A stretch of DNA of 64,000 nt, taken from the NCBI GenBank assembly GCA_018696595.1, contig JABHQW010000005.1, forward strand, positions 25,721-89,720, written 5' to 3'. The notes beneath the pieces are model-generated. The model had not been told where the DNA came from. It ran no database searches and saw only the letters and a program-made list of their open reading frames with translations. Position 1 is the stretch's first letter. Each line of letters begins with the position of its first letter. Below, one piece after another: positions 1,204-49,902 of the stretch. This stretch comes from Candidatus Woesearchaeota archaeon (GTDB lineage: Archaea; Nanobdellota; Nanobdellia; Woesearchaeales; GW2011-AR9). A program made the translations under genes and the position numbers.

Positions 1204-1781
1204 AAATTGAAGAACGACTGGATAAGTTAAATGAAAAGTTACAGGAAACTCGTTTTTTAGAAATGAAAGGTCTTGGAAATGAAGTTCCTTTTTATATATT
1301 TGATTATCCTGCTGAAAAAGAATTGTTAATTAGAGAAACTGTTGCTAAACTTAAAGATTCTTTTTTGAAAAAAGAAATTAATATTCTAGAGATAAATTTA
1401 TATGATTTAGTATTAGGTGTTTTGTTTGAAAGAATTCCTACTGAAAAAATTATTGATTATGAAAAAAAGAAAGGATCAAACGAATTACTAAATAAGCTTC
1501 GACCTATGCTTAAAATAGATCTTGTTAAAGAAAAAATTGCTTCTCTTTTATCTAAAGAAAAATACAATATTATATTTTTAACAGGAATTGGTAATGCTTG
1601 GCCATTAATCAGATCTCATAAAGTACTAAATAATCTACAATCTGTAATTAGTAAAATTCCTTTGGTTGTTTTTTATCCAGGCCACTATACTAAATATGAT
1701 TTAAATTTATTTGGAAAGTTTAAAGATGCTAATTATTACCGTGCATTTAGATTAATAGATTATGCTGAGGAGGAGAATTAA
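1200..1781 (+). CDS. brxB: BREX protein BrxB (DUF1788)
   Basis: GLGNEVPFYIFDYP, GIGNAWPLIRSH, VVFYPG..Y and NYYRAF motifs; ATGA overlap with brxA. Confidence 0.92.
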   Translation: MKIEERLDKLNEKLQETRFLEMKGLGNEVPFYIFDYPAEKELLIRETVAKLKDSFLKKEINILEINLYDLVLGVLFERIPTEKIIDYEKKKGSNELLNKLRPMLKIDLVKEKIASLLSKEKYNIIFLTGIGNAWPLIRSHKVLNNLQSVISKIPLVVFYPGHYTKYDLNLFGKFKDANYYRAFRLIDYAEEEN

Positions 1782-1782
1782 A

Positions 1783-8729: not shown

Positions 8730-8730
8730 G

Positions 8731-11304: not shown

Positions 11305-11316
11305 GAGGGTAAAAAA

Positions 11317-13347
11317 ATGGTCGAACAAGATACTGATATAAAATTAAACGAAGTATTTGCAGGAAAAGTAGTGAGGAAAGATTTAACTAAAACTTTAGGT
11401 AAAAGTGAAAATGTTCCAATATATGTAATAGAGTATCTTTTAGGGCAATATTGTGCAACTGATGACGATAATATCATAAAAGAAGGATTACAAAAAGTTA
11501 AAAATATTTTAGCAGATAACTTTGTTCGACCAGATGAAGCTGAAAAAGTAAAATCAAATATCAGGGAAAAAGGATACTATACTGTCATTGATAAAGTCAC
11601 AGTTAAATTAAATGAAAGACGAGATGTTTATGAAGCAGAATTTTCAAATTTGGGATTAAAGGGTGTTGAAGTAGAACCAAATGATGTTAAAAGATTTGAA
11701 AAACTTCTTTGCGGAGGTATTTGGTGCATTCTTAAAATAAGCTATTCAACTGAAGAATCTAAAAATCCATTTATTATTGAAAGTTTAAAACCAATTCAAA
11801 TTGCTAGTATGAAAATTCAGGAGTTTATAGATGCGAGGGAAAAATTCCAGACTGAAGAGTGGATTGATGTTATTTTAAGATCTATAGGGATGGAACCAAC
11901 TCAATTAGAAGAGAAAACTAAATGGCATATCCTGGAAAGACTTGTACCTTTAATAGAGAATAATTATAATTTAGTAGAACTTGGCCCAAGAAGTACAGGA
12001 AAATCTCATGTTTACAAAGAAATTTCTGCCAATTCTATTTTAATGTCTGGTGGTCAAACTACAGTTGCAAATCTATTCTATAATATGTCCACTAGAAAAA
12101 TAGGTCTTGTGGGTTATTGGGATGTAGTTGCATTTGATGAAGTTGCAGGAATGAACTTTAAAGATAAAGATGGAATTCAAATCATGAAAGATTATATGGC
12201 ATCAGGATCATTTGCAAGAGGAAAAGAGGAAAAGAATGCTAATGCTTCAATAGTATTTGTAGGTAATATTAATCAAAGCGTTTCATCATTGTTAAAAACT
12301 GCACATCTATTTCAACCATTTCCAGAATCTATGAATAATGATAGTGCTTTCTTTGATAGGATTCATTACTATTTACCTGGATGGGAAGTTCCAAAATTTA
12401 AACCAGAACATTTCACAGATAGATATGGATTTATTGTTGATTATTTTGCAGAATTTCTAAGGGAAATGAGAAAAAGAAATTTTAGTGATCAAATTAGTAG
12501 CTATTTCAAACTTGGTAATAACCTAAATCAAAGAGATGTAATTGCAGTTACAAAAACATTCTCTGGATTAATGAAATTATTGTATCCTAATCAAAAAGCA
12601 ACTAAAGAAGAAATACAACAAGTTCTTGAATATTCACTTGAAGGGAGAAGAAGAGTGAAAGAACAACTAAAGAGAATGGGAGGGATGGAATTCTTTGATG
12701 TTAATTTTTCATATATAGATAATGAAACTTTAGAAGAACATTTTGTAAGTGTGCCTGAATCAGGAGGAAACAAATTAATTCCTGAAGGAGTTATGAATCC
12801 AGGACATATATTCACAGTAGGATATGCTAATGGTACAAAAATAGGTGTCTATAAACTTGAATTACAAGTAGTTAATGGAACAGGAAAATTTGAAAAATCT
12901 GGTTTAAACTCTAATGCCAAAGCAAAAGAAGCCGCAAATACTGCAATAAATTATTTTAAAGCAAATGCTAAAAACATTAGCCAAATGATCAAGTATAAAG
13001 AAAAAGATTATTTCTTACACATACAAGATCAGTATGGTGTTGGTCTAACTTCAGACATTGCTCTTGCATACTTCATTAGTTTATGCTCTGGATCATTAAA
13101 TAAGCCAGTAGATGAACAATTAGTGGTGTTAGGTACTATGACTATAGGTGGATCTATTAATTCAATAGAGAACCTAGCAGATCAATTACAAATATGTTTG
13201 GAAGCAGGAGCAAAGAAAATATTATTGCCTATGTCTTCTGCAGGAAAAATGTCTTCAGTACCTCCGGAATTATTTAGTAAATTTCAAATTGCATTTTATT
13301 CAGACCCAATAGATGCAGTTTACAAAGCATTGGGGTTTAATCATTAG
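11317..13347 (+). CDS. brxL: BREX Lon-like AAA+ protein BrxL
   Basis: VPIYVIEYLLGQYC, Walker A ELGPRSTGKSH, VAFDEV, C-terminal Lon-like domain (GTMTIGGS, GAKKILLP). Confidence 0.95.
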   Translation: MVEQDTDIKLNEVFAGKVVRKDLTKTLGKSENVPIYVIEYLLGQYCATDDDNIIKEGLQKVKNILADNFVRPDEAEKVKSNIREKGYYTVIDKVTVKLNERRDVYEAEFSNLGLKGVEVEPNDVKRFEKLLCGGIWCILKISYSTEESKNPFIIESLKPIQIASMKIQEFIDAREKFQTEEWIDVILRSIGMEPTQLEEKTKWHILERLVPLIENNYNLVELGPRSTGKSHVYKEISANSILMSGGQTTVANLFYNMSTRKIGLVGYWDVVAFDEVAGMNFKDKDGIQIMKDYMASGSFARGKEEKNANASIVFVGNINQSVSSLLKTAHLFQPFPESMNNDSAFFDRIHYYLPGWEVPKFKPEHFTDRYGFIVDYFAEFLREMRKRNFSDQISSYFKLGNNLNQRDVIAVTKTFSGLMKLLYPNQKATKEEIQQVLEYSLEGRRRVKEQLKRMGGMEFFDVNFSYIDNETLEEHFVSVPESGGNKLIPEGVMNPGHIFTVGYANGTKIGVYKLELQVVNGTGKFEKSGLNSNAKAKEAANTAINYFKANAKNISQMIKYKEKDYFLHIQDQYGVGLTSDIALAYFISLCSGSLNKPVDEQLVVLGTMTIGGSINSIENLADQLQICLEAGAKKILLPMSSAGKMSSVPPELFSKFQIAFYSDPIDAVYKALGFNH

Positions 13348-13355
13348 ATGTTAAA

Positions 13356-16300
13356 ATGACAAACGAAATAAAAACTCAAGTGGATAAAGCATGTGTGATA
13401 CTTGCAGGTGCAGGAACTGGTAAATCTTACACTATTAAACAAAAAGCCAAATATCTCGTTGAAGAATTAAAGTATAATCCTGAAGAAATCCTTTGTCTTA
13501 CTTTTTCAAATGAAGCAACTAATTCACTAAAGAAAGGAATGCAAGAAGAGATTAATTCAACAGAAGATGTTGATGTTAAAACATTTCATGCATTTTGTGC
13601 AGATATATTAAGAGAAGAAGGTCATTTAGTTGGCGTTCAAGAAGGTTTTGAGATATTGCTTCCTGATGATGCTAAGATTTTTATGCATAAATATTTAGAA
13701 ATTAAACCTTATTGGTCAAACAGATACATAAACACAATATCTACTGCAAAAGATTTTGGTATTAGTATAGATGATATTAAAGGACATTTGAATAAATTAA
13801 AAGAGAACTTGTCTGGAGATAATCTTGAAGAACAAACAACTGAAATGAAAGTTGAATTAAAAACTCTTTATCTTGAAGAAAACACTAAAGAACTTAGGGA
13901 GCGAAAAAAAGAAATACAACAATTCTTGAAGGGATTTGATAATTATTCTAGATTAAAAGAATTTATCAAAGCATGGGATGATTTTGACAATTTAAAAAAA
14001 GAAAAAAATTATCTTGATTTTTCAGATCTTAATTTTTTTACATTAAAATTATTTAGAGAATTTGGTGCAAAAAAAGATAAATACAAATATGTATTTATAG
14101 ACGAATTTCAAGATACAAATAAATTACAATTTGAGTTAATAGAATTCATTGCAGGACAAAATATCACAGTAGTTGGAGATCCAAATCAATCAATTTATGG
14201 GTTTAGAGGATCGTATAAAGAAAGTTTTGAACATTTTAAGAAAGTTTTCAAAGTAGAAGAAGTTCATAAACTTGATAAAAGTTGGAGATCACCAAATCAA
14301 ATTCTTAATGCATCTCATGAATTAATAAAAAATAATTATGAAAATCCTGAAGATTGTATTAACATTCAAAATGCTAATGGGGATGAAGGCGATAAAGTTA
14401 ATGTAATTGAACTTGTAAATAAATATGAAGAAGCTAGATATATTGCTGATTTAGTGCAGAAAAAGATAGATGAAGGAATTTCTAAAGATGAAATTTGTAT
14501 TCTTCATAGAACTCATAAACAAGCTGAAGAAATAAAAAAAGCATTAGAACTTAAGAACATACAATTTATTTCAGCAGGAAAAATAGATCTACTTCAAAAA
14601 AGAGAGATAAGGACAGTAATAGGATATTTAAGCATATTATCAAATTTAATTAATAGATCTGGTACTGGGGAACAGTCATGGTGGGATTTATTTCATTTTC
14701 AAAATACATTAAGTCCAGAAGACTCAGTTAAAATTGGAAGATATCTTAAAAAACATAACAAACATGAAATGCCTATAGAAGATCAAATAGGGATCGATGA
14801 ATTATTATTAAATTCTATCTCAGAGTTGAACCTATCGAATGAAGCAAAAGTAATTATAAAAAGAGTAGTTGATCTGTTAAGAGAAATACTTAAATCTTCA
14901 AACAAGCCATTACCAGAGATAATCCTTGATATATTTGAAATTTCTGGATTGAATAGGGCTTTTAGTCATCAAAGAAATATTCAGAACATTGAAAGTTTAA
15001 TGAATTTAAAAAAATTCTATGAAATTGCGAAGAATTATTATAATTTACATGAAAAAAATCTAACTGAATTTATTAAGTATCTAGAAATGGTTGACACTTT
15101 AGGAGTTAGTATAGATGCATCAAAAATATTACACATTGATGCTGTTAGATTAATGACGATTCATGCGTCAAAAGGATTGGAATTTGATGTAATTATAACT
15201 TGTAATCTTGCAAAAGATAGATTCCCTGTTGGTAGGACAAGGAATGAACCATTAATTCCTAAAGAATTGTTACCAGATTTCAAGGCACAAATAGATGATT
15301 GGAAAGAAGAAGGTCTTAATGAAAAGGAAATTGAAAAGAAAATAAAAGATTATGATAAGTCTATTCAATTATTTGAAGAAAGAAGACTTTGTTATGTAGC
15401 TTGGACTAGGGCTAAGAAGGAATTACATTTAACTTATGCAAGAAGTTATAATGATGAACCAGATTCAACGACAAAATCAATTTTTTTAGACGAAATAAAA
15501 TATACTGAAACTTGTGAATTTGTAAAAGATGATGAAGAAAAATCATTATTGATTGCACCAAATTCTAATTATGAAATTTACAAATCTATGTTAAAAAATC
15601 AATTAATGAACTCTTTAGATACTGAAGGCGTAGATGATTTGAAGAAAAGATTAATCACTTATTTGGTTTGTAGGGATAAAAAATTAATTGAGGATGATTC
15701 ATCAGATAAAGCTGAATTACAAAGGCATTTAGATAAATGTAATGAAGATGTATCTGGAATTAAATTTAATTCTTCAGATTTTACATTTAGTCCAACAGCA
15801 TTAATTGAATATTCGGAATGTCCAAAAAAGTTTGAACTTAGCAAGATATATCAAATGCCTCAAAGAGGAGATTTTGAATCAGACGGTGGAGGGGCATCAC
15901 TTGGATCTTTTATTCATAAAGTCTTAGAATTAGGAGTAGATCAAAAAACAGACAAATTGGAAGGATATATTGAATTAGCAAAGAAATTAGTTAAAGATAA
16001 TGAATGGGAATCAATAAATATTAATGATGCAATTCCTTTAATTGAAATATTCTGGGAGAGAAATAAAAATAAAATAAATGAAAACTCCAAAACTGAATTA
16101 AAACTGCCTGTAGAAATCGAAGGTTTTAGATTTTTTGGCCTTGCAGATAGAGTAGATACATTGGATGATGGAACAGTTGAAATTGTGGATTATAAAACAA
16201 ATAAAGATGCGATACCTCCTAAAAAAAGGGCATTGCAATTAGGTTTTTACGCATTAGCTCTTCAATCAAAAGGATTCAAAGTTTCAAAATTAACATTAGA

Positions 16301-16532
16301 TATGTTAAAACTTGATAAACCAATTGAAATGAAAATTGAAGGTGATGAAGTTATTGCAGTATTGGGTTGTAATAAATCAGCCAATTTCAAATTATCAGAA
16401 TTAAAAGCAGAAATAGTTGAATTAACAAAAAGTATAAAGAACGATTATGAACATTCGTTTGATTGTACTGATGATGAAAATTCATGTAGATTTTGTGGGT
16501 ATAAATTTTATTGCCCTAAGTGGGATGAATAA
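13356..16532 (+). CDS. UvrD/PcrA-type SF1A helicase fused to a C-terminal PD-(D/E)XK nuclease with four-Cys Fe-S staple (AddA/AdnB-like architecture)
   Basis: AGAGTGKS, IDEFQDTN, VGDPNQSIYGFRG, MTIHASKGLEF, EERRLCYVAWTRA. Nuclease motifs GLADRVD, IVDYKT, QLGFYA. Cysteines in ECPKK and CRFCGYKFYCP. Confidence 0.9.
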   Translation: MTNEIKTQVDKACVILAGAGTGKSYTIKQKAKYLVEELKYNPEEILCLTFSNEATNSLKKGMQEEINSTEDVDVKTFHAFCADILREEGHLVGVQEGFEILLPDDAKIFMHKYLEIKPYWSNRYINTISTAKDFGISIDDIKGHLNKLKENLSGDNLEEQTTEMKVELKTLYLEENTKELRERKKEIQQFLKGFDNYSRLKEFIKAWDDFDNLKKEKNYLDFSDLNFFTLKLFREFGAKKDKYKYVFIDEFQDTNKLQFELIEFIAGQNITVVGDPNQSIYGFRGSYKESFEHFKKVFKVEEVHKLDKSWRSPNQILNASHELIKNNYENPEDCINIQNANGDEGDKVNVIELVNKYEEARYIADLVQKKIDEGISKDEICILHRTHKQAEEIKKALELKNIQFISAGKIDLLQKREIRTVIGYLSILSNLINRSGTGEQSWWDLFHFQNTLSPEDSVKIGRYLKKHNKHEMPIEDQIGIDELLLNSISELNLSNEAKVIIKRVVDLLREILKSSNKPLPEIILDIFEISGLNRAFSHQRNIQNIESLMNLKKFYEIAKNYYNLHEKNLTEFIKYLEMVDTLGVSIDASKILHIDAVRLMTIHASKGLEFDVIITCNLAKDRFPVGRTRNEPLIPKELLPDFKAQIDDWKEEGLNEKEIEKKIKDYDKSIQLFEERRLCYVAWTRAKKELHLTYARSYNDEPDSTTKSIFLDEIKYTETCEFVKDDEEKSLLIAPNSNYEIYKSMLKNQLMNSLDTEGVDDLKKRLITYLVCRDKKLIEDDSSDKAELQRHLDKCNEDVSGIKFNSSDFTFSPTALIEYSECPKKFELSKIYQMPQRGDFESDGGGASLGSFIHKVLELGVDQKTDKLEGYIELAKKLVKDNEWESININDAIPLIEIFWERNKNKINENSKTELKLPVEIEGFRFFGLADRVDTLDDGTVEIVDYKTNKDAIPPKKRALQLGFYALALQSKGFKVSKLTLDMLKLDKPIEMKIEGDEVIAVLGCNKSANFKLSELKAEIVELTKSIKNDYEHSFDCTDDENSCRFCGYKFYCPKWDE

Positions 16533-33356: not shown

Positions 33357-33462
33357 GCACCCGTAGTTTAATGGCTAGAATCCGGGCCTTCCATAAGGCC
33401 TGTAATCAACTACTCGCTTTTGAAGTGAGCCTGTGATCCGGGTTCGAATCCCGGCGGGTGCA
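33357..33462 (+). tRNA. tRNA-Gly(UCC) with 34-nt intron at 37/38 (33394-33427)
   Basis: GCACCCG/CGGGUGC acceptor, CGGGC/GCCUG anticodon stem, CCGGG UUCGAAU CCCGG T arm. BHB with CUUC/GAAG helix and UG^A bulge. Confidence 0.92.
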
Positions 33463-38522: not shown

Positions 38523-41500
38523 TTAAACTTTACTAAACCAAACAGAAAACTTTTCCCACTTAACTTTAAACTCTGCCTGATGTTCATGCTTCCTTACAGA
38601 ATCAGCAATAGAGATCTCCATTTTATCTGCTCCGATTTTCTCTTCAATCTCGGGCTTAAAAGGTTCAAGCATTTCTTTCATTTCCTTGCTAACTTTCAAC
38701 AACAAAACAATTGAATCTAACTTTTCAAGTCCTGCTTTCTTTCTCAGCTGTTGAATATTTCTCATCACTTCACGAGCATATCCTTCAGCATCCAATTCTT
38801 CACTTCTCTCGGTATTCAAATAAACTTGCCCGGACCTAAACTCACTTTCCTGGAAAATATCTGGAACTTCTCTCTCAACAATAATCATATCTTTAGTAAT
38901 CTTAACTTCTTTATCACCAATAGAAAACGTATAAACACTTTCTTTTTCTAAATGTCCAATAATAGTTTCAGGACTATCAATAGTTAACTTAGTAGCAATC
39001 TCTGGAGTTAACTGACCATAAGCCTTACCAATTTTTCCGGGATCACATTTGATTTTAATAGACACACCAGGCAAACTCTCTAAAACATTAATAGATTTAG
39101 TATTAACTTGTTTTTGAATTATGTCCCTCATCTTTTCAACAGCAGCAATCACTTCTTGTTTCTTACTAACAACAACAATTTCTTTAACTGGCCATCTTAA
39201 ACCAAGTTTAGCTTTCTCCCTAGCATTCAAAGCAGATTGAACAATTTGTTTAGAAGCTTCAACTGACTGTTCTAACTCTAAATCAATCTTTTCTTCATTA
39301 ACTGTTGGAAAATTATAATGCATAATGCTTGACTCTTTCAAATTAAACTCTTCCTTGAAATTCTGATAAATTGCTTCAGTAATAAAAGGAGAAATTATGT
39401 TAAATGATTTAATGAATTCCATCAAAACATTAAAGATTGTATAAACTGCAACTTCTTTTTCTTGTTCTTCTCCTAAAGCACATTTATCTCTAACCATTTG
39501 GATATAAGTTCGACTTAATTCTAAAAATAATTCTTCTAATGGAGCAATAGTTTCGTCTAAACGATACTGTTCAAATAATTCTGTTACTTTCTTTAAAGTA
39601 GAATTTAGTTTAGAGAAAATGTATTTCTCTTCGATCCCTAAAACGTTCTCAACAATACTTTTATCAATCTTAACTGGATTAATTTTGTTTTCTTTACACA
39701 AATTAATTAAGAATTTATGAGTGTTCCAAAGGATTAACAAGTGTCTTCCTTTCAAAGCTGCTTCATCCCAACTAAACTTAATATCTTGACCAGCGTTAGT
39801 TTGACACATGTAATATCTTAAAACGTCTGCGCCATGTTTAGTGATCATTTCATTAGGAGAAATAATGTTGCCAATAGATTTACTCATCTTAGTTCCTTCA
39901 ACATCTCTGATCATTCCGTGCATGTAAACATTTTTGTAACAATTCTTATCCATCGCTAATTGTGAACAGATTGATAACATACTAAACCATAACCTAACTT
40001 GTTCAGTTGCTTCCAAAATCAAATCAGCAGGAAAGTTATCAACAAAGTGTTCTTCACTTTGCGGATAATATAAACAATTCCAAGAAGCTGTACCTGCATC
40101 AATCCAAACATCTAAAATGTCAGGAATTCTTTTCATTGTTCCCTTACCACATTTACATTTCCATTTAACTTCATCAATCCAAGGACGATGTAAATCTTCA
40201 GGAATATTTTCTTTACCAACTTTAACTTCAAGCTCTTTAACAGAACCAATAACTTCAATCTCTTTACAATCTTCTTGATCACATTCCCATAACGGAACAG
40301 GAGTTCCCCAATATCTTTGTCGGGTAATAGAATTATCTTTCAAGTTTGAAGTCCAAGCATCAAAACCTTGGGTCTTAGGAACCCAATGAACTTTAGCGTT
40401 CTCTTGAATCATCTCTACTCTAAGATCTTCGATCTTAAAGAACCATTGTTTGGTTGTTTTGAAAATAACAGGTTTATGACATCGCCAACAAGTAGGATAA
40501 TCGTGCTCAACTTTTGTTGTTGCAATTAAGAAACCATCTTTTTCCATATCTTCAATAAACTTTTTATCATCAACTTTAGCAATCCTTCCGGCAAATCTTT
40601 CTCCAATCTCTTTTGGGAATTCTCCTTTCTCAGTAAGATTGTTAAACGCAGGTAAACCATATTCCTTTCCAACAACCTGATCCTCAGGACCACACCCAGG
40701 TGCGCAATGTACTAACCCAGATCCAGCAGTGAAGTCAACATGTTGTTCTGATAAAATAACTGTATGTAATTTAGGATGTTTCTCTTTCATTTCTTTGAAT
40801 TGTGGAATATCCTTTTCCCAAGGATGAACATATTCAGTTCCCAAAAGAGTTTCTCCTTTGAACTCTTCAACAACTGTTAATGCTTTACCAACAACAGATT
40901 GCACAAGTGGACCAACTAAACTTTTCCCGATAACCCAAAGTTCTTCATGATCTTCAAAATCTAATTTAGCTTTTACATAATCCAAATTAGGATTAACCAT
41001 AATTGCAAGATTGAAAGGAATTGTCCAAGGAGTAGTTGTCCAAATAACTAAGAATTCATTTTCTTTACCTTTGATTGGAAATTTTAAGAATACTGAATCT
41101 TCTGTTAATTCTTGATATTCACATTCGTGTTTAGCTAAAGCAGTTTCACAATTACCACACCAAGTCATAGATTTGTCTCCAAGGTATAATCTATCTTTTT
41201 TCCAAGCTTGTTTAACCATCCACCATTCTCCTTCCATATAATTATTGGTTAAAGCCATGTAAGGGTCGTCAAATTTAATTGTACAACCAATTCTTCTGAA
41301 ATCATCATCCATGGTTGCTGCTCTTGCTTTTGCATACTCTTCGCAGAGCTTGATAAATTTACCAACACCAAAACTTTCAATATCTTCTTTAGCTTTAAGA
41401 TCATTTTCTGCCATAACTTTATGAGCAGTAGGTAATCCATGAACATCATAACCATTTCTGTCCCAAACATTGAATCCTTGACTTCTTTTATATCTCAAGG

Positions 41501-41693
41501 CCATATCTTTCAAAGCATAATTCCAAGCATGTCCAAGGTGAATTCTTCCAGAAGTATAAGGTGGGCCTTGTAAGAAGGTAAACTTTTTACCATTTTCATT
41601 TTTATCTTTTAGTTTCTGTAGGATCTTTTGATTCTTCCAGAATTCTAGCATCTCTGGTTCAAGTTCTTTATGATTGTAATTAGGATATTTCAT
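38523..41693 (-). CDS. ileS: Isoleucyl-tRNA synthetase
   Basis: GPPYTSG..HLGH (HIGH), WTTTPWTIP editing domain, RQRYWG, KMSKS. Confidence 0.96.
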   Translation of the reverse strand: MKYPNYNHKELEPEMLEFWKNQKILQKLKDKNENGKKFTFLQGPPYTSGRIHLGHAWNYALKDMALRYKRSQGFNVWDRNGYDVHGLPTAHKVMAENDLKAKEDIESFGVGKFIKLCEEYAKARAATMDDDFRRIGCTIKFDDPYMALTNNYMEGEWWMVKQAWKKDRLYLGDKSMTWCGNCETALAKHECEYQELTEDSVFLKFPIKGKENEFLVIWTTTPWTIPFNLAIMVNPNLDYVKAKLDFEDHEELWVIGKSLVGPLVQSVVGKALTVVEEFKGETLLGTEYVHPWEKDIPQFKEMKEKHPKLHTVILSEQHVDFTAGSGLVHCAPGCGPEDQVVGKEYGLPAFNNLTEKGEFPKEIGERFAGRIAKVDDKKFIEDMEKDGFLIATTKVEHDYPTCWRCHKPVIFKTTKQWFFKIEDLRVEMIQENAKVHWVPKTQGFDAWTSNLKDNSITRQRYWGTPVPLWECDQEDCKEIEVIGSVKELEVKVGKENIPEDLHRPWIDEVKWKCKCGKGTMKRIPDILDVWIDAGTASWNCLYYPQSEEHFVDNFPADLILEATEQVRLWFSMLSICSQLAMDKNCYKNVYMHGMIRDVEGTKMSKSIGNIISPNEMITKHGADVLRYYMCQTNAGQDIKFSWDEAALKGRHLLILWNTHKFLINLCKENKINPVKIDKSIVENVLGIEEKYIFSKLNSTLKKVTELFEQYRLDETIAPLEELFLELSRTYIQMVRDKCALGEEQEKEVAVYTIFNVLMEFIKSFNIISPFITEAIYQNFKEEFNLKESSIMHYNFPTVNEEKIDLELEQSVEASKQIVQSALNAREKAKLGLRWPVKEIVVVSKKQEVIAAVEKMRDIIQKQVNTKSINVLESLPGVSIKIKCDPGKIGKAYGQLTPEIATKLTIDSPETIIGHLEKESVYTFSIGDKEVKITKDMIIVEREVPDIFQESEFRSGQVYLNTERSEELDAEGYAREVMRNIQQLRKKAGLEKLDSIVLLLKVSKEMKEMLEPFKPEIEEKIGADKMEISIADSVRKHEHQAEFKVKWEKFSVWFSKV

Positions 41694-41758: not shown

Positions 41759-42421
41759 TTAATCCCCCCTCAAAGCACCCAATACTCCCTTCCAGTTTTT
41801 TACAGTAACTTCTGCTCCAGCTTCTCTTTGGTAAAGTGCACTTTCTCCATCAGATAAACGCCATGAAGCCTGTTCAGTCAATGAACCATCTTTCATAAGA
41901 TACATTTCTGGAAAATCTCTGTTATCAAACAAAGCAACTTTAGAGTCATTTATAGTGAATTCTTCTCTGCCATGTTCAGAATCTCTGTTTCGGAAAAGAT
42001 CAAATGTAGCCGCTATAGGACCAGCATGGTGGTTCATATCAGTAAGAATTCCAATTAAAGGTATTCCTTGTTTTGCTGCATATAATGCCATTGCATATCC
42101 CAATGGTTGTTCTTCATGTCTTTGATATTCCCCTTCACGTGTTAAATTTATAATTCCGGGTCCTAGTGGAAACATCATATCTGTCAACACAATGTCATAA
42201 CTCTTGCCAGCAGATTCTTGAGCAATTTCCTTGATTCTGTTAGACTCGGCTCTCTCAATGAAACCACTGCCGGTACGATTCCCAACATAATCTTGACCCA
42301 GATGAGCTAATGCTTCAACCAAATTACTAGCGACAACAATATTATGCTCGCCAAGTAAATCATTTGCTGAATCTTGGTGGATTTTCTTATCCTCTACTAC
42401 TAATATATCTAATTTTTCCAT
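41759..42421 (-). CDS. Stand-alone receiver (CheY-like) domain protein with insertions
   Basis: ILVVED acidic pocket, DIVLTDMMFP phospho-acceptor strand, ILTD switch strand; no output domain. Confidence 0.7.
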   Translation of the reverse strand: MEKLDILVVEDKKIHQDSANDLLGEHNIVVASNLVEALAHLGQDYVGNRTGSGFIERAESNRIKEIAQESAGKSYDIVLTDMMFPLGPGIINLTREGEYQRHEEQPLGYAMALYAAKQGIPLIGILTDMNHHAGPIAATFDLFRNRDSEHGREEFTINDSKVALFDNRDFPEMYLMKDGSLTEQASWRLSDGESALYQREAGAEVTVKNWKGVLGALRGD

Positions 42422-42568: not shown

Positions 42569-43321
42569 ATGTATGAAGAATTACTTGCTGAGATTGGCTT
42601 AACAAAATCAGAGATAGCAGTTTACTTTGCTTTATTAGAAATTGGTTCTTCAACAACAGGACCAATAATTAAGAAAGCAGGAATTGCCTCAGGCAAAGCT
42701 TATTTGATTTTAGATAAACTGATACTAAAAGGATTAGTTACCCACGTAATCAAGTCAGGAACTAAATATTACCAAGCAAAAGACCCAGAACAGTTGCTTG
42801 ACTATATGGATGAGAAAGAAAAGAGCTTAATAAAGAAAAAAGAGAAACTTAAGAAAATCATCCCAGTTCTTAAAGCCCAGTATGAAGAACAAAAATACAA
42901 ACCGATAGCAGAAGTTTACGAAGGAGTTAAAGGATTCAAAACATTTTATGAATCAGCATTGAAAGAACTAAAGAAAGGAGACACAATCTATATCATGGGC
43001 GTTCCAAAAAAAGCCAATGAAAAGTTCGAGGGTTATTTAGTTGAATGGAACAAAAGAAGAATTCAAAAAAATATCAAGATGAAAATCATCTACAACCACG
43101 ATTGTAAAGAAGATGGTGTGAAAAGAGAAAAGATGAAATATACCGAAGTTCGTTATATGAACCAAGAATTAGAAACTCCTGCATGGATCGATATTTTTAA
43201 AGATTATGTAGTCACTATTAATGTTCATGGCACCCCTGTTTGTTTTCTTATAAAAAATAAAGAATCATCAGATTCATACAAAAAACATTTTGATATTTTA
43301 TGGAAGCAAAGTAAAAAATAA
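42569..43321 (+). CDS. TrmB family transcriptional regulator
   Basis: GLTKSEIAVYFALLE..IIKKAGI..Y.IL.KL..KGLV wHTH; AEVYEGVKG; PLD-like effector domain. Confidence 0.88.
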   Translation: MYEELLAEIGLTKSEIAVYFALLEIGSSTTGPIIKKAGIASGKAYLILDKLILKGLVTHVIKSGTKYYQAKDPEQLLDYMDEKEKSLIKKKEKLKKIIPVLKAQYEEQKYKPIAEVYEGVKGFKTFYESALKELKKGDTIYIMGVPKKANEKFEGYLVEWNKRRIQKNIKMKIIYNHDCKEDGVKREKMKYTEVRYMNQELETPAWIDIFKDYVVTINVHGTPVCFLIKNKESSDSYKKHFDILWKQSKK

Positions 43322-43344: not shown

Positions 43345-44751
43345 TCAATTATCTTCCCCTGGAAATGCGTCACCAACAAATTTTTCAAGCGTTTCTCTTT
43401 TACTTGGTTGACGAAGTTTTTCTAAAGCCTTTCCTGAAAGTTGTCGAGCTCTTTCTCCAGTAATTCGGAAAGGATGACCCATTTCTTTCCAACCATCTGC
43501 TTCTAATTCACCAAACCCAAACTTCATTCTCAAAATCTTTTCTTCTCTGGCTGTTAATGTAGCTAATACTCTTCTTAAACCCTCTCGTAAACGAACTGTG
43601 TAATTAAAATCTGCAGGGTCTGTTGCTTTTTTATCCTGAATAAAAGCACTAAAAGGAACATATTCCCCTCCAAATTCAATCGATTCTTCTAAAGAGAAAG
43701 TATCCTGATATGCTTTCAAACAAACTTTAAGTTTCTTCATTCTATCAGGAATATTTTTTGCAATCTCTTCTTCAGTAGGGCCTCTTTCAATGCCTTTATT
43801 CCTAAAGCCTTCTTTGATTTTTCTTAAGACTACTTGTCTAGCAGTAATGGGTAAAACTTCATCCTGAGTTGGTTCTCTACCTAACTGATGCATTAATTTT
43901 ATTGAATTAACATAATGACTATGAAGTGTTTCGGCTACATAAACGGGAACTTTTATAGTTTTCCCATATTCAGCTAACGCCCTAGTTATAGATTGTTTAA
44001 TCCAATATATCGCATAAGTAGAAAATTTAATTCCTTTCCGATAATCGAACTTATCAACTGCTTTTATTAAACCAAGGTTACCTTCTTGAATTAAATCTAA
44101 ATAATCTAATCCGTGATCCACAAAATGTTTAGCTTTATTCATGACCAATCTTAAGTTTGATTTAACAAACTCATTATGATAATTTCTAATCATTTTCAAG
44201 TTACTTTCTAATCTCAATTGCAAATCTTCAAGTTTTTCTAAGTAAGAAGGTTCAATTTCAGATTCTGAAGAATCATTAATTTCTTTTTCAATCCGTTGAG
44301 ATAAACTCTCTCCAGCAAACCTAATTAATCCCCGATTAGAAACTCTCTTTTTTTTTACACGATATTCAGGAGGGATTTCTTTTAGTTTAATATCGTAAAA
44401 ATATAATTTCTCAAAATAAGAATCCATTAAACTGTCTCTTTCTTCATCATCCAAACAATCAACTAATTCAGTTTCTAATCGAGAAATAAAATAGCCTAAA
44501 TCTTTACGTTCGCATTTTTTTGCTTGTTTAACAAGAAAATCAAGATCTGAAGATGCATCTAAATACAAATCGTAAGGTTGATATTCACAAATCGCTAAAA
44601 AAACTTCTTGAGAGTGATATTCTATTTCAGAAGCCAAATCTTTCTCATTAGAAAAATCACCCAATAGACTGGTTTTGGATTTAACTTCAGCCATATAAAT
44701 AGCGGTTGAACTCTTCCTACCATTATCACCACCAGAACCAGAATTACCCAT
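43345..44751 (-). CDS. Bacterial sigma70 (RpoD-like) protein
   Basis: Region 1.2 (STAIYMAEV), region 2 (SNLRLVMNKAKHFVDHGLDYLDLIQEGNLGLIKAVDKFDYRKGIKFSTYAIYWIKQSITRA), region 3 (TIKVPVY..LGREPT), region 4 (LTAREEKILRMKFG..ERARQ..KALEKLR). Confidence 0.88.
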   Translation of the reverse strand: MGNSGSGGDNGRKSSTAIYMAEVKSKTSLLGDFSNEKDLASEIEYHSQEVFLAICEYQPYDLYLDASSDLDFLVKQAKKCERKDLGYFISRLETELVDCLDDEERDSLMDSYFEKLYFYDIKLKEIPPEYRVKKKRVSNRGLIRFAGESLSQRIEKEINDSSESEIEPSYLEKLEDLQLRLESNLKMIRNYHNEFVKSNLRLVMNKAKHFVDHGLDYLDLIQEGNLGLIKAVDKFDYRKGIKFSTYAIYWIKQSITRALAEYGKTIKVPVYVAETLHSHYVNSIKLMHQLGREPTQDEVLPITARQVVLRKIKEGFRNKGIERGPTEEEIAKNIPDRMKKLKVCLKAYQDTFSLEESIEFGGEYVPFSAFIQDKKATDPADFNYTVRLREGLRRVLATLTAREEKILRMKFGFGELEADGWKEMGHPFRITGERARQLSGKALEKLRQPSKRETLEKFVGDAFPGEDN

Positions 44752-44797
44752 TATTATTACTAAATAAAAAGAAAATATAAAAACCTATCTTAAAAAA

Positions 44798-45025
44798 TCA
44801 TTCAAAATCCAAATTTTCTAAATCTTCGAAATCTGCAGTTAAATCATCTTCTAAAGATTCAAGATCTTCAATTTCGTTTAAAGCTTCTGAGATTTCTGCT
44901 TCTTCTGAACTAGCTGGTTCTTCAGTTGCTGTTTCAGTAGAATCTTCTAAAGTGTCTTCCATTGGTTGACAAGCAACTAAGAAAACTAGACTAATTATAA
45001 GCATTATTGATAATATTCGTTTCAT
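44798..45025 (-). CDS. Small acidic lipoprotein-like protein
   Basis: MKRIL.. signal followed by a FLVAC lipobox; Glu/Asp-rich. Confidence 0.7.
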   Translation of the reverse strand: MKRILSIMLIISLVFLVACQPMEDTLEDSTETATEEPASSEEAEISEALNEIEDLESLEDDLTADFEDLENLDFE

Positions 45026-45103
45026 AATATACACCTCTTTTCGTTAAAGTAATGAAAATTCATTTATTAATGTTTCTAAAAAAGAAAAAAAGAAAAAAGA
45101 AAA

Positions 45104-46147
45104 TTATTCTTCAGTTTCAGTTTCTTCTTCCTCATCTTCAACTTCTTCCTCTATTTCGGTTTCTTCAACATCATCAGAAACTTTATTGTTTTTGTAAACT
45201 TCGTTAAACTCTTTAACAAATTCTCTCAACAATTCTTTAGTTTCTTTCATGTCTTCACGAACAACCCTTTGTTTCTCTTTAGCTTCTTCTAAAGCTTCGG
45301 GACTAGATTTAGCATTGGCCCAGGCCTCTTCAGCTGCTTCCTGATCTGCTTTCAAATCTTCCATTGCTTCCCTAAACTCTTCAGCAATCTCTTTAACTTC
45401 AGCTAATTCAGCCTCAGTATAACCTTTATCTTCTAAAGTAGAAATTCGAACAGTCATAGCATTATAATATTCTTCATGCTTATCTGCTAAGTTACCCATC
45501 TTATTATTAATCAACTGAGTTACTTGCCACCTTTGTTCTCTTCTAACTTTATTCCAGATATTTTTAAGTGCTTTAATTTGTTCTCTTAATTCTTCTGCAG
45601 TTAAATCATCTCCCAGAGATTCAATTTCATCTTTCTTTGCAGTTAATTCTTCTTCTAACTCAGCAATCTTAGCTAAAGCTTCTTCTTTTTCTTCAGCAGT
45701 TAAAGCTTTAGAATTTTCTACTTGATCAACTAACTTCTCTAAAGATCTTAAAATTAAATCGCTAGTTTTAACTAAATGGTTCTTTACGCCAATTCTTAAT
45801 CCTTGTTTAGCTTTTCTACACGTTTCCGCATCTTCATTACAAGCTTCAACATTCTTTTTTGCTTCCATTACTTTTTCTTTTTGTGCTTGAAAATGTTCTC
45901 TAGCTTGTAGGTGTTTCTCTTTTAATAATTGTAATCTTTCTCTAGTTAGTTTTAATCCTTCCTTTGTATTCGCCAAAACTTTCTTTGCTTGCTTTCCAGG
46001 TGCTTGTTTAGCTTTCAACGGTTCAGGAGTTGCATCTAAAACATCTCCTGTTTCTTCTTCTGCTAAAGCTGCTGGTAGAATACTTAAGATAAATAGTGCC
46101 AGTACAGCCAAAGCAAATGTTTTCTTCATTATTTTTTTCATTTTCAT
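45104..46147 (-). CDS. Secreted coiled-coil protein
   Basis: Signal peptide (MKKTFALAVLAL..AALA), heptad-rich body, acidic tail. Start set behind a GGAGG Shine-Dalgarno. Confidence 0.75.
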   Translation of the reverse strand: MKMKKIMKKTFALAVLALFILSILPAALAEEETGDVLDATPEPLKAKQAPGKQAKKVLANTKEGLKLTRERLQLLKEKHLQAREHFQAQKEKVMEAKKNVEACNEDAETCRKAKQGLRIGVKNHLVKTSDLILRSLEKLVDQVENSKALTAEEKEEALAKIAELEEELTAKKDEIESLGDDLTAEELREQIKALKNIWNKVRREQRWQVTQLINNKMGNLADKHEEYYNAMTVRISTLEDKGYTEAELAEVKEIAEEFREAMEDLKADQEAAEEAWANAKSSPEALEEAKEKQRVVREDMKETKELLREFVKEFNEVYKNNKVSDDVEETEIEEEVEDEEEETETEE

Positions 46148-46374
46148 TTCCCTCCAATTTTTTTGTTCATCACAAACGTTTTGTCTGATCATACAGTTCT
46201 GAGAGATCAACTACTTTATAAAGAAACTTTTTGGTCATTGGTTTTTTAGTTGCAAAGAAGCTTGTTTTTAAGAGTTAAAACTTTAGGAAGCTTGAATTGG
46301 GGGTTAAAGGTTTATGGAAAGTGTTTTGTTCTCACACATAAAATATAAAAAGAAGTTCATTATTTTGTTTATTT

Positions 46375-46884
46375 ATGGAAGACTTACATGATACTTGGCC
46401 TCATCGTTGGCTTACACCAAAAGCAGAACCAAGGAATTCTTCAATACACCGATACGGAATCTTTGCAAAAGAAGAGATTAAGAAAGGTGAACCAATTAAT
46501 GCTTTTGGTGGAATTACAGTTCCGAAGGGAGAAATAAAAGAATATAGAAAAATCATCAGTCATGCTGGAATACAAGTTAGCGATGATTTCTTTATTGTTC
46601 CTTCAAGCCATGAAGAAATCAAAGAACAAGGAATATTTAATCACTCTTGTGAACCAAATGTTGGCTTTAATTCTAGTATAACTATGGTTGCAATGAGAGA
46701 TATAAAAGCAGGGAAAGAGTTAGCCACCGATTATGCATTTATGGAATCCTATTTTGAATCTTTTGAATGTAGTTGTGGTTCTTCTAATTGTAGGAAAACA
46801 ATTACAGGCAATGATTGGAAAATTAAAGAGATTCAAGAAAAATATAAAGAATTCTTTTCCCCATACTTACGAGATAAGATATAA
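46375..46884 (+). CDS. SET domain protein-lysine methyltransferase with post-SET
   Basis: YGIFAKEEIKKGE, FNHSCEPN, ELATDY, CSCGSSNCR. Confidence 0.9.
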   Translation: MEDLHDTWPHRWLTPKAEPRNSSIHRYGIFAKEEIKKGEPINAFGGITVPKGEIKEYRKIISHAGIQVSDDFFIVPSSHEEIKEQGIFNHSCEPNVGFNSSITMVAMRDIKAGKELATDYAFMESYFESFECSCGSSNCRKTITGNDWKIKEIQEKYKEFFSPYLRDKI

Positions 46885-46891
46885 TTTCTTT

Positions 46892-46924
46892 TTTCAATAA
46901 CTTTTTATAGCAAATAAACTTTCT
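46892..46924 (+). repeat. 33-bp direct repeat, copy 1 (contains the TATA of the NUDIX gene)
   Basis: TTTCAATAACTTTTTATAGCAAATAAACTTTCT, identical to 47419-47451. Confidence 0.9.
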
Positions 46925-46932
46925 GTTATTTT

Positions 46933-47418
46933 ATGGATAGAAGCACTTTACCTTATCGAAGAAATTGCGAAGGATATTTTTTTACAAATGATGGAAAAGT
47001 ATTAGCCAAAGACACTAAAAAAGGTTATCTTGTTTTTCCGGGTGGGGGTATTGATAAAGGAGAACATGCAGATTCTGCAGTGGTACGTGAAACTTTTGAA
47101 GAAACCGGTGCAATTATTCAATTACCAATTAAAGATTTAGAAACAGTTCAATTTATTTGGGATGAGAATTGGGCAAGGTCAGAAAAACAAAAGAGAAGAT
47201 ATAAAGAATATAAAGGTGAAGAAATGCATTTCTTTTCTGGAAAGATTAAAGAGTTTACAAAAAATGAGGAACAACATGAAGATTATTGGGAAGGTGAAAA
47301 ACTCATGCCCATATCAAAAGCAATTAAGATTATTGAAAAAGAAAAACCATTCCCAGAAAACATGAAAGTTTATCGTGAAGCGCAACTTAAATTTCTAAAT
47401 CAAATAAATAACACTTAA
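46933..47418 (+). CDS. NUDIX hydrolase
   Basis: Nudix box GGGIDKGEHADSAVVRETFEETG. Confidence 0.9.
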   Translation: MDRSTLPYRRNCEGYFFTNDGKVLAKDTKKGYLVFPGGGIDKGEHADSAVVRETFEETGAIIQLPIKDLETVQFIWDENWARSEKQKRRYKEYKGEEMHFFSGKIKEFTKNEEQHEDYWEGEKLMPISKAIKIIEKEKPFPENMKVYREAQLKFLNQINNT

Positions 47419-47459: not shown

Positions 47460-48167
47460 ATGAAACTTAAATTATCACTTTTATTAGCAATCTTATTATT
47501 AACTTCTCTAGCTACTGCAGCAACGTTACAAGGTAGCGTTTACAATTCCAACTTAGAATTAGAAACAGATGTATTAGTAGAAATTGGCACACAGAAATTC
47601 TTAACCAAAGATGGCAATTACCAATTCGAGTTAACTTTAGGAACACATGAAATAGTTGCCACTAAAGGTTTAGTCTCAACCACAGAAGAAGTTCAAATAA
47701 CTAACACAGGAACAAATGTGTTTGATCTTTTCTTATTAGATGACTTTACAAACGAAGATGATCTTTGGAAAGATACAGAAGAAGAATTCTTTATAGAAGA
47801 TGAAGAAACAAGTTACGCTTTATGGCGTTATGTATTAGGAGGATTAGTAATTTTGGCACTTTTGATCAGATTCTTTTGGATGAGAAAAAAGTTTGGTTCA
47901 GTAAGAAAGTTTAGACAACACCACAAATCAGAAAATAGGAAAACAGTTGAGCAACATCAAAAAGAGATTGATAAAGAGCCAGGATATATTGACCGAGCAG
48001 TAGAAATTATTAAGAAACATGATGGAAGGATTCATCAAAAAACTTTAAGAAAAGAGATGTTAGACATTTCCGAATCTAAAGTTAGCCTAATTCTAACTGA
48101 ACTTGAGCATAAAGGCAAGATTGAGAGGATTAAGAAAGGCCGTGGGAATGTTATTATATTAAAGTAA
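47460..48167 (+). CDS. Membrane-anchored winged-helix regulator (COG2512-like): signal, extracellular beta domain, TM, cytoplasmic wHTH
   Basis: Signal peptide, TM YVLGGLVILALLIRFFW, and C-terminal HDGRIHQKTLRKEMLDISESKVSLILTELEHKGKIERIKKGRGN. Confidence 0.8.
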   Translation: MKLKLSLLLAILLLTSLATAATLQGSVYNSNLELETDVLVEIGTQKFLTKDGNYQFELTLGTHEIVATKGLVSTTEEVQITNTGTNVFDLFLLDDFTNEDDLWKDTEEEFFIEDEETSYALWRYVLGGLVILALLIRFFWMRKKFGSVRKFRQHHKSENRKTVEQHQKEIDKEPGYIDRAVEIIKKHDGRIHQKTLRKEMLDISESKVSLILTELEHKGKIERIKKGRGNVIILK

Positions 48168-48222
48168 AATTTTAACTATTCTTAAGTAAGATTTTTAAGC
48201 TATCTGCTTTATTTGCTAATTA

Positions 48223-49578
48223 ATGAAGAAAGAGAAGAAAGAACAACCAGAACAAGTAAGCTTAATAGATCAATACTTAGATAAAGTTGGAAAAACTCCT
48301 TTATTCAGTAAAAAAGAAGAAGTAGAATGGGGACAGAAAGTTGAGAATTCTTATCGAAATCTAGTTGGTGCCCTTTATAATCACGAAGAAAGAATTGACG
48401 ATGAAATAAGATCTGGCATGTCTATTTTATTGGAAGAGTTACTTATTACCTATGGTGAAGAAAAACGAGAAAGAATTGTAGAAGAAGGGCCAAGTTGTTT
48501 AGAAATCAATGACCCTTATAGAATTATTTCTGAATTGGAAGATTTAGTTTCGAAAGGCAATAAAAAAACAGAAAAAGTTCAAAACCAGGTTTTTAAATTA
48601 TTATATTGGTCTGAATATACCCATCAACCCGAAGAAGGAGAAGAAATCTCAAATGACCTTCCTGAAAAACTTAAGAAAGGAAATTTAAATAAATGTAGAG
48701 AAGCTATTCTTAGTACTGCAGAAAGGATTGCAGAAGAAAACCAAGATTTAGATATAAAAGAAGAAATAGAAGCTATTAATGAATATAAAAGAGAATTAAT
48801 GGAAAGAAATCTAAAACTTGTTGTAAGTGTTGCCAAAGAATATCAAGGCATGGGATTGCAGATGGCTGATTTAATTCAAGAAGGTAATTGGGGTTTAAAA
48901 GAGGCAGTAGATTTCTTTGATTACAGAAAAGGACTCAAATTTTCTACTTATGCCACTCGGAGTATAAAACAAACAATATCAAAAGGAATTGCCCACTATG
49001 CAAAAACAGTAAAAATCCCAAATCAAGTTGGTTTAGTTCGTAGAAAATGGCGGAAAGCTTCAGAAGAACTATTGCAAGGATTAGAAAGAGAACCAAATGA
49101 AAACGAGATTGTTGCCCAGATGATTGAGAATAATCCTGATGATTATGATACAGAAAATACTAAAGAGATTATTGAAAAAATGAGGGCATTAGACCAAGTT
49201 GAGGGAGAACTGGTTCCTTTAGAAAAACATACTAATCTTGAGGTAAGAATCACATTTAAAGATTTAATAGAAGATAATAACGCCTTTGAGGGAGAACAAT
49301 ACAGCTCAAACAGAGAATTAATATTAGAAACAGATAGGGTACTTACTACCTTAACTCAACATCAAGAAAAAATTCTTAGAATGAGACACGGAATTGCTCG
49401 GAATCGTGCTGACCCACAAAATGAAATTGAATCTGGCGAAGATATTCCCCATTCATTAGAAGAAATTGGACAACATTTTGGTGTAAGTAGAAGAGCAATT
49501 CATTATCATGAGAAAAAAGCTTTGAAGAAATTGAGAACAATACTTAAAGCCGAAAAACTAAGAACATTTTGGGATTGA
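48223..49578 (+). CDS. Second bacterial sigma70 (RpoD-like) protein
   Basis: Region 1.2 (IDQYLDKVGKTPLFSKKEEVEW), region 2 (RNLKLVVSVAKEYQGMGLQMADLIQEGNWGLKEAVDFFDYRKGLKFSTYA), region 3 (LEREPNENEI), region 4 (HSLEEIGQHFGVSRRAIHYHEKKALKKLR). Confidence 0.88.
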   Translation: MKKEKKEQPEQVSLIDQYLDKVGKTPLFSKKEEVEWGQKVENSYRNLVGALYNHEERIDDEIRSGMSILLEELLITYGEEKRERIVEEGPSCLEINDPYRIISELEDLVSKGNKKTEKVQNQVFKLLYWSEYTHQPEEGEEISNDLPEKLKKGNLNKCREAILSTAERIAEENQDLDIKEEIEAINEYKRELMERNLKLVVSVAKEYQGMGLQMADLIQEGNWGLKEAVDFFDYRKGLKFSTYATRSIKQTISKGIAHYAKTVKIPNQVGLVRRKWRKASEELLQGLEREPNENEIVAQMIENNPDDYDTENTKEIIEKMRALDQVEGELVPLEKHTNLEVRITFKDLIEDNNAFEGEQYSSNRELILETDRVLTTLTQHQEKILRMRHGIARNRADPQNEIESGEDIPHSLEEIGQHFGVSRRAIHYHEKKALKKLRTILKAEKLRTFWD

Positions 49579-49630: not shown

Positions 49631-49902
49631 GGGGAAAGCTAGGCTGGGAGGTTAGCGTTCTCTTGTTACTGTCAACACGCTTTAGACAGAGCCGAAGCCC
49701 GCGGAAGGGTCAGTTTTGTTTTGTTGGTCCTGATTGTCTTTGCTGACGGCTTGTCCTTTGGGATGGGCTTGCTGGGAATCTGGTCAGATGTGGAAGCAAG
49801 CAGCCATAACCTTTAAGTTTCATGTTCAGAGGGTTGCAAGTTTGAGAAGCTTTCGGGATTAAGCCAACGATGCTTAGTTGATTCGACTATCGGGCGTGCC
49901 CT
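49631..49902 (+). ncRNA. ffs: Archaeal SRP (7S) RNA
   Basis: Alu-domain start GCUAGGCUGGGAGGUUAGCG..UGUUAC, GCCGAAGCCCG, helix 8 UGGUCAG..GGAA..AGCAGCCA, 3' CGGGCGUGCC. Ends are approximate. Confidence 0.88.

Follow-up and report, generated by a model that had tools for sequence, protein, structure and literature searches.

In the 64,000-nucleotide stretch of the Candidatus Woesearchaeota archaeon assembly analysed here (hereafter the window; C8:25721-89720 of the host genome, G000), a minus-strand gene, denoted copy 1, encodes a homologue of the bacterial sigma factor RpoD, and a second sigma gene, copy 2, lies in the same window. Sigma factors typify transcription in bacteria, and the textbook picture of archaea is that they lack them. 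It is near certain that copy 1 is a chromosomal, selectively maintained member of the Woesearchaeota/DPANN family of sigma-70 homologues, derived from RpoD and adapted to its host.

When copy 1 was compared with the Pfam models, the cut-offs were exceeded for Sigma70_r2 (PF04542; 66.6 bits, cut-off 24) and Sigma70_r4 (PF04545; 34.5 bits, cut-off 24.1), and the score was slightly below the cut-off for Sigma70_r3 (PF04539; 21.8 bits, cut-off 25.3), in a region that aligns to RpoD regions 3.0-3.2 with a 26-residue insertion. The sigma-70 superfamily model TIGR02937 matched well above its cut-off (93.9 bits, cut-off 42.9). The top NCBIfam models were all RpoD/SigA; the score for the RpoD model NF004208 (255.7 bits, E = 1e-75) is far short of the equivalog cut-off of 555, and that for TIGR02393 (233 bits) is also below its equivalog cut-off (354). 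RpoD/SigA chains were the best matches in the Protein Data Bank (PDB; phmmer, E = 5e-56), aligned in two blocks, residues 155-300 and residues 325-461, which leaves an insertion of some 25 residues between regions 3.0 and 3.1. The AlphaFold2 model (mean pLDDT 84.6) is an all-helical sigma factor with sigma2, sigma3 and sigma4 domains, and the 50 matches listed by Foldseek for this model are all sigma factors, mostly E. coli sigma70 in RNA polymerase holoenzyme or promoter complexes (best E = 7e-15). The gene is divided as follows.

43345-44751, minus strand: copy 1, coding sequence including the stop codon, ATG start, 468 residues, RpoD-type sigma-70 homologue
44578-44712, minus strand: region 1.2, residues 14-58, from the alignment and helices 15-25 and 33-56 of the model
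44197-44577, minus strand: non-conserved region between 1.2 and 2.1, residues 59-185, acidic, isoelectric point (pI) 4.7
43957-44196, minus strand: regions 2.1-2.4, residues 186-265
43855-43956, minus strand: region 3.0, residues 266-299, from the alignment and the model
43777-43854, minus strand: lineage-specific insertion between 3.0 and 3.1, an extra helix, residues 300-325 (26 residues)
43612-43776, minus strand: regions 3.1-3.2, including the sigma-finger hairpin, residues 326-380
43366-43611, minus strand: regions 4.1-4.2, residues 381-462, helix-turn-helix

Region 1.2 was not reached by Pfam at E ≤ 0.01 and aligns to the region 1.2 column (Y..E......LL...E..LA..IE). Region 1.1 is absent according to Pfam (no PF03979 match), the alignment and the model, only a Gly/Ser-rich tail of 13 residues preceding region 1.2. 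When residues were mapped to the E. coli numbering via the PDB-sequence alignment, the core-binding helix 2.2 was found to be intact (D403, Q406, E407 and N409 kept), and the −10 and melting residues Y430, W434, Q437, T440 and R441 are kept as well. The changes in region 2 are Y425 to Ile, T432 to Ile and W433 to Tyr, the last position being Asn in the orthologue, P0002; the Gly that replaces R584 in region 4.2 is His in P0002. The initial annotation of this stretch, made from the sequence alone, had described a full-length bacterial-type sigma with regions 1.2, 2, 3 and 4 in order, and the profiles, the alignment and the model bear this out. The three peptide strings quoted there all occur in the translation of copy 1; its statement that the core-binding and −10 motifs are largely intact is borne out by the residues kept, and the altered region 4.2 helix it reported is right in detail, with R584 changed to Gly while E585, R586, R588 and Q589 stay.

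In an alignment of 13 archaeal and 14 other sigma homologues, positions 199-203, 219-228, 231 and 235 of copy 1 (regions 2.1-2.2) are invariant or nearly so, and likewise F243, S244, T245, Y246, W250, Q253 and R257. This pattern bears on the possibility that copy 1 works independently of RNA polymerase, as an ordinary repressor or activator that would bind duplex or melted AT-rich DNA via regions 2.4, 3.0 and 4.2. Such a regulator would fit the lack of the autoinhibitory region 1.1, the basic character of regions 2, 3 and 4 (pI ~9.5) next to an acidic N-terminal half, and the residues retained in the helix-turn-helix of region 4.2; furthermore, archaea generally regulate with bacterial-type helix-turn-helix proteins (PMC2995911). 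However, what is best conserved throughout the archaeal copies is the region 2.1-2.2 surface for core RNA polymerase and not the DNA-reading residues, which would be unexpected were no polymerase contacted, although the residues of that surface are also structural. On balance, a polymerase-independent role appears unlikely.

The sigma gene resides on a genuinely archaeal DPANN chromosome. The host, a small marine Woesearchaeota (DPANN) archaeon, has a genome of 1.19 Mb in 8 contigs that is 97% complete, with 0.38% estimated contamination, and encodes archaeal rpoA1 (1162 bits), a split archaeal rpoB, and TBP, TFB and TFE (TFE-alpha). In this 97%-complete genome, the models for bacterial rpoB, rpoC and rpoA (TIGR02013, TIGR02386 and TIGR02027) matched only the archaeal subunits, below cut-off. 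The RpoA1 of a same-genus genome, G001, carries the NCBI name Candidatus Woesearchaeota archaeon. Two RNA genes of the window are of the archaeal kind.

49632-49902, plus strand: archaeal signal recognition particle (SRP) RNA, 100.6 bits, 53 nt 3' of copy 2, which marks the contig as archaeal
33357-33462, plus strand: tRNA of 106 nt (Rfam, 53 bits; missed by ARAGORN in bacterial mode), probably an intron-containing archaeal tRNA

The GC content of copy 1 (32.3%) equals the genome value, and the median gene has a larger codon-usage distance than copy 1. The coiled-coil gene, the small gene, the sigma gene, the gene of a TrmB-family regulator, orf220 and ileS all lie on an independently assembled ENA contig (4777 nt), which differs from the window by 1 nt, a non-synonymous Y262D substitution in copy 1 (L121:806-2212) where region 2.4 ends; apart from this change, the population is clonal along these 4.8 kb. 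The 3' end of the sigma gene is joined to the TrmB-family gene in four further fragments, two from JGI and two from ENA, all from separate samples, and the exact copy 1 protein occurs on 31 contigs, the longest of 284 kb. The stretch is present in marine and seawater metagenomes from 15 studies, at least half of it being covered in 17 runs, and no RNA data set was listed for the gene; the source population is marine and abundant and has yielded many assemblies. Taken together, the independent assemblies, the syntenic P0002 contig and the native GC content and codon use indicate that the gene is not chimeric.

A TATA or TATA-like box was located upstream of each sigma gene.

44776-44783, minus strand: TATA box TTTTTATA of copy 1, separated by 24 nt from the ATG at 44751
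48192-48199, plus strand: TATA-like box TTTTTAAG of copy 2, starting at −31

Upstream of 884 long open reading frames of this genome, TATA-like hexamers start at −31 to −28 from the ATG in 522 cases, compared with ~16 per position elsewhere, a peak that we read as the signature of leaderless archaeal transcription. The TTTATA hexamer of copy 1 begins at −30 and thus falls on the genome-wide peak, so that its placement is beyond chance, implying that copy 1 is preceded by what would be a canonical leaderless archaeal promoter; the box of copy 2 falls on the same peak. The box 24 nt 5' of copy 1 had been pointed out in the initial annotation, which had also argued from tRNAs and SRP RNA that the surroundings are archaeal, and both statements stand, the latter by virtue of the two RNA genes listed above. 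The search for bacterial RNA polymerase subunits proposed there returned none that reaches its cut-off, with RNA polymerase, TBP, TFB and TFE all archaeal, and a chimeric contig, the concern raised there, is excluded by the independent ENA and JGI contigs and the syntenic relative. An assembly chimera or a bacterial contamination of the bin is accordingly assigned a negligible probability, given the independent assemblies, the syntenic relatives, the native composition, the archaeal promoter, the SRP RNA 53 nt from copy 2 and the low contamination.

Among 5.8 billion proteins, P0002 is the single close relative of copy 1, with 56% identity over the full length. In an exhaustive HMMER search of 1.84 billion representatives, P0002 ranked first, followed by RpoD-like proteins at 190-250 bits, one of which (P0122) lies in a dnaG-rpoD operon. 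A search of genome contigs and metagenome contigs returned only distant homologues (27-36% identity) and one 69-residue fragment at 52%, and the named records were all bacterial. The DNA-level relatives of copy 1 differ from it at 0-8 nt (98.6-100% identity), and the remaining relatives have reached saturation, at 30-38% amino acid identity. Copy 1 and P0002 are 61-68% identical in regions 2, 3.0 and 4, the value falling to 46-47% in the insertion and the non-conserved region. At an amino acid divergence of 44%, P0002 retains its full length and has no indels other than small ones, and the chance of a 468-codon frame staying open in DNA of 32% GC is ~1e-16. Thus, two full-length frames at this divergence point to purifying selection on the frame. 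The 15-kb contig of P0002 shares the gene order of this locus, copy 2 included, and reads sigma2, DUF7343, SET, two unannotated genes, a coiled-coil gene, a small gene, sigma1, TrmB, two unannotated genes, ileS, one unannotated gene and MgtC.

Sigma70_r2 was detected in 166 of the 401 high-quality genomes of the phylum and in 32 of the 41 of this family, the matches listed fall in the same family, order or class, and four model archaea used as controls gave no sigma-70 match. If copy 1 were a functionless relic of horizontal transfer, drifting to loss, its dispensability in relatives, its fast evolution and the changes at R584 (−35 recognition) and W433 (melting) would be readily accounted for. 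However, intact frames of 465-468 residues persist in two lineages at 44% divergence in a genome of 32% GC, the promoter is canonical, the functional motifs are conserved across archaeal copies, and the family is retained by the 166 genomes; we therefore consider a relic very improbable.

In the maximum-likelihood tree, copy 1 groups with P0002 (support 100/99) and then with the third sigma of G001 (93/81), and the copy 2 group is their sister (99/91). The resulting seven-member clade of copy 1-type and copy 2-type proteins has a support of 97/91, and a shorter form of the insertion between regions 3.0 and 3.1 is common to all seven. The clade, together with the shared insertion, indicates that copies 1 and 2 are paralogues that arose by duplication within this lineage. 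The two are now 32% identical, and the Trp-Trp dyad is lost in copy 2, where it reads RS. The sigmas of G037, G006 and G025 (L015, L016 and L018) are nested, with a support of 99/92, in a bacterial SigA-like subgroup that includes a dnaG-rpoD operon gene, which shows that sigma genes entered these archaea more than once. These three look like separate, more recent acquisitions, the G006 sigma gene having a GC content of 52.6% compared with 42% in its flanks.

The neighbourhood of the two sigma genes in the window consists of the following.

38523-41693, minus strand: isoleucyl-tRNA synthetase (ileS), the conserved other flank of the sigma slot
42569-43321, plus strand: TrmB-family regulator, convergent with copy 1, with 23 nt between the stops
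44798-45034, minus strand: small acidic protein with a signal peptide and a lipobox-like Cys, directly upstream of copy 1
45104-46210, minus strand: secreted coiled-coil protein, a conserved neighbour
47460-48167, plus strand: DUF7343 membrane-anchored winged-helix protein with a signal peptide, an outer domain, a transmembrane helix and a cytoplasmic winged helix-turn-helix, the conserved flank on the upstream side of the sigma slot
48223-49578, plus strand: copy 2, 451-residue paralogue with regions 1.2, 2 and 4

The TrmB-family gene is conserved in the P0002 contig and in the independent assemblies, and the neighbourhood of the small acidic protein is also conserved in the P0002 contig, G002 and G016. 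Between ileS and the TrmB-family gene, a 220-residue protein is encoded at 41759-42421 on the minus strand; its N-terminus is faintly similar to a response-regulator receiver (16 bits, below cut-off), and the gene is kept in a near-identical strain contig, while the P0002 contig has a 215-residue gene in its place. At 46375-47418 on the plus strand, between copies 1 and 2, a SET-domain protein and a NUDIX hydrolase are encoded, and the SET gene is also found in the P0002 contig. Elsewhere in the window (430-16532, plus strand), there is a complete type 1 BREX system, with BrxA, BrxB, BrxC, the PglX methyltransferase, PglZ and BrxL, followed by a gene for a UvrD-helicase/PD-(D/E)XK nuclease. 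The GC content of this island is 25-30%, compared with ~32% for the genome, which gives it the look of a defence island that this DPANN archaeon acquired horizontally.

The slot between the DUF7343 gene and ileS varies in sigma content, with no recognisable sigma gene in G014 and G004, one in G018 and G023, two in G012 and three in G001; in G000, the pair is split by a rearrangement. The three sigma genes of G001 (L038:2557-6991; 476, 494 and 488 residues) stand in tandem right after the DUF7343 gene, where G000 has one. In G016 (L111:8209-9006), the position of copy 1, between the small acidic gene and ileS, is occupied by a different sigma of 266 residues (r2 48.6 bits, r4 33.1 bits) with a slightly raised GC content (38.7% vs. 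34.4%). This sigma was missed by the copy 1 protein query, so that counts obtained with that query understate the number of sigma-bearing genomes.

When G000 was compared with same-genus genomes, the identities were 84-85% for RpoA1, 87% for the NUDIX protein, 72-79% for the DUF7343 protein, 73-76% for the two downstream open reading frames, 67% for IleRS and 55% for the small acidic protein. The sigmas, among them the G002 sigma that corresponds in position to copy 1, are only 30-38% identical, whereas the flanking genes range between 55 and 96%. It is near certain that sigma genes are gained, lost and duplicated in this slot and diverge very fast.

The rapid divergence, the tandem duplication and the presence or absence in a hot spot would all be explained if the DPANN sigma homologues, copy 1 among them, were conflict genes, i.e. 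virus-derived or anti-virus factors that redirect or protect RNA polymerase in an arms race with viruses or mobile elements. The contrast between the sigmas and their flanks, the zero to three copies across genera and the different sigma of G016 are in line with such a history, as is the observation that relatives acquired a sigma independently, from SigA-like genes of bacteria, at least once more (99/92). Two rpoS-like genes, one of them prophage-derived, are found among the auxiliary genes of DPANN viruses (PMC12647753), and the BREX island is 27 kb away. Against this, the neighbours of the sigma genes have no PHROG or PADLOC matches, the sole match being the generic MzaA-like one of the sigmas themselves, MZA partner genes are missing, the composition is fully native, and the locus is syntenic and vertically inherited, with no obvious insert. 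A conflict gene is thus, in our estimate, rather improbable. A prophage or defence-island origin of the locus was rejected, given the neighbours without PHROG or PADLOC matches, and the matches in phage databases are host-type rpoD genes in phages or misfiled bacterial records.

The DUF7343 gene is represented by one orthologue per genome in 22 of 23 family genomes. It is located next to, and 5' of, a sigma gene of the same direction in four genera (g1, g11, g17 and g22; relatives G001, G002, G012, G018 and G023) and not in others. The DUF7343 protein could be an anti-sigma-like partner, or the adjacency could merely be inherited synteny; an obligatory partnership was rejected because the adjacency is limited to these four genera of the family.

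As for function, we tentatively favour a dispensable accessory transcription factor that would act on the archaeon's own RNA polymerase and promoter DNA and would not be a general initiation factor, a role that we regard as possible, if short of probable. Copy 1 would stay in the archaeon's own cytoplasm, where the docking site for the invariant surface of regions 2.1-2.2 would be the Rpo1 clamp coiled-coil of RNA polymerase, which corresponds structurally to the beta-prime clamp helices of bacteria; AT-rich promoter DNA would be bound by regions 2.3-2.4 and by the helix-turn-helix of region 4.2, and open-complex formation would be modulated at a subset of promoters dependent on TBP, TFB and TFE. 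This reading is favoured because the core-binding helix is conserved and the archaeal RNA polymerase is the sole polymerase encoded. The Rpo1 clamp coiled-coil (residues 228-278) is invariant in 22 relatives and can be aligned gap-free with a bacterial beta-prime clamp hairpin, for which a manual count gives 13 identities over 47 residues of the coiled-coil; the Rpo1 clamp is, judging from these alignments, a plausible docking site. The predicted complex of copy 1 residues 1-300 with Rpo1N residues 1-420, with alignments as input, scored 0.01, which is evidence neither way. The sigma is dispensable in relatives, and TFE occurs in relatives with and without it. Replacement of TFE by the sigma was ruled out, since G000 and 37 of the 40 relatives have TFE-alpha, whether or not they encode a sigma.

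Several observations weigh against an accessory factor on the archaeal polymerase. The loss of R584 and the change of W433 suggest that the classical −35 and −10 functions may be altered. Sigma70-type −35/−10 sites are not enriched around the locus (59 vs. 61.4 ± 8.9 in shuffles). We know of no site on archaeal RNA polymerase for docking of sigma4 that is equivalent to the beta flap-tip helix. Finally, the 30-38% identity among the sigmas fits a conflict gene or one under relaxed constraint at least as well as a housekeeping regulator.

The conservation of the core-binding residues could also be understood if copy 1 were an effector, transferred into a bacterial host to compete for or reprogram the core RNA polymerase there. 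The equivalents of D403, Q406, E407 and N409, which bind beta-prime, are all kept though the genome lacks a bacterial core enzyme, the family is fast-evolving and expanding, and Woesearchaeota have many bacterial-type genes (PMC8204110). However, copy 1 has no signal peptide or recognisable export signal, and a factor with housekeeping-like specificity would not obviously reprogram a host. To our knowledge, no bacterial host of a DPANN archaeon has been described. The DPANN hosts that are known are archaea (PMC8204110). Hence, an effector seems decidedly unlikely. In a broader formulation, the sigma homologues may be true selectivity or melting factors that bind RNA polymerase, docking on the clamp via region 2.2, with the paralogues serving as alternative promoter programmes atop TBP, TFB and TFE, or may be delivered to the RNA polymerase of a bacterial partner; we give this formulation a low probability. 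If the homologues were selectivity or melting factors on the archaeal enzyme, they would make up a hybrid bacterial/archaeal initiation system.

Sigma factors were reportedly noted in DPANN single-cell genomes by Rinke and colleagues (Nature, 2013). Sigma-70 genes of DPANN (fam00359) were described by Castelle et al. (2021, Front Microbiol, PMC8204110) as 'particularly prevalent in Woesearchaeota'; that study excluded mis-binning, detected no anti-sigma factors and did not settle how the proteins work. The initial annotation, whose interpretation is supported in part, had proposed either a domesticated sigma used as a DNA-binding or melting regulator or an effector aimed at the RNA polymerase of a bacterial partner, and had called either role undescribed as far as its author knew. 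In that form, the claim to be undescribed lacks support, given that study and the NCBI name of a same-genus homologue, 'sigma-70 family RNA polymerase sigma factor [Candidatus Woesearchaeota archaeon]'. The discovery of archaeal sigma-70 is thus already published, and the value added by this locus is descriptive, not conceptual. What is new here is the locus detail, namely, the paralogy, the DUF7343-ileS slot with zero to three copies, the contrast in rate with the flanks, and the promoter position. A widely retained, motif-conserved sigma family in DPANN is a real puzzle on the mixing of transcription machineries, and the locus lends itself well to experiments, having a clear orthologue, a defined archaeal promoter and a slot in which the gain, loss and divergence of sigma genes can be seen directly.

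Among known systems, the group 1 sigmas RpoD/SigA share with copy 1 regions 1.2, 2.1-2.4, 3.0-3.2 and 4.1-4.2 in order, as well as a non-conserved region between 1.2 and 2.1. Region 2 is ~57% identical (manual count) and whole local alignments are 43-44% identical, with helix 2.2 almost unchanged; judged by sequence, copy 1 is among the most RpoD-like of the archaeal copies compared. It differs from RpoD/SigA in lacking region 1.1, in the 26-residue extra helix, in the replacement of R584 by Gly, W433 by Tyr and Y425 by Ile, in the absence of the dnaG-rpoD operon context and of a bacterial core RNA polymerase from the genome, and in the archaeal promoter. The RpoS-like group 2 sigmas are similar in being dispensable and in having RpoD-like regions 2-4 without region 1.1, whereas in copy 1 a long stretch separates region 1.2 from region 2.1, the host is archaeal, and the match to TIGR02394, at 175 bits, is below the cut-off of 378.7. 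In bacteria, sigma region 2 binds the homologous clamp hairpin and aids DNA melting, as TFE does in archaea; with TFE-alpha and Spt5, which bind the RNA polymerase clamp coiled-coil, only a functional analogy is proposed, there being no relationship to sigma in sequence or fold. The sigma domains also match MzaA of the MZA anti-phage system (NCBIfam 208 bits, PADLOC 153 bits), although 208 bits is far under the cut-off of 800 and no other MZA genes (MzaB-E) are found among the neighbours. The DPANN sigma-70 family (fam00359), to which lineage and annotation suggest that copy 1 belongs, shows no difference in kind from it: each is a bacterial-type sigma in a Woesearchaeota genome that has TBP, TFB and TFE and no recognised anti-sigma factor.

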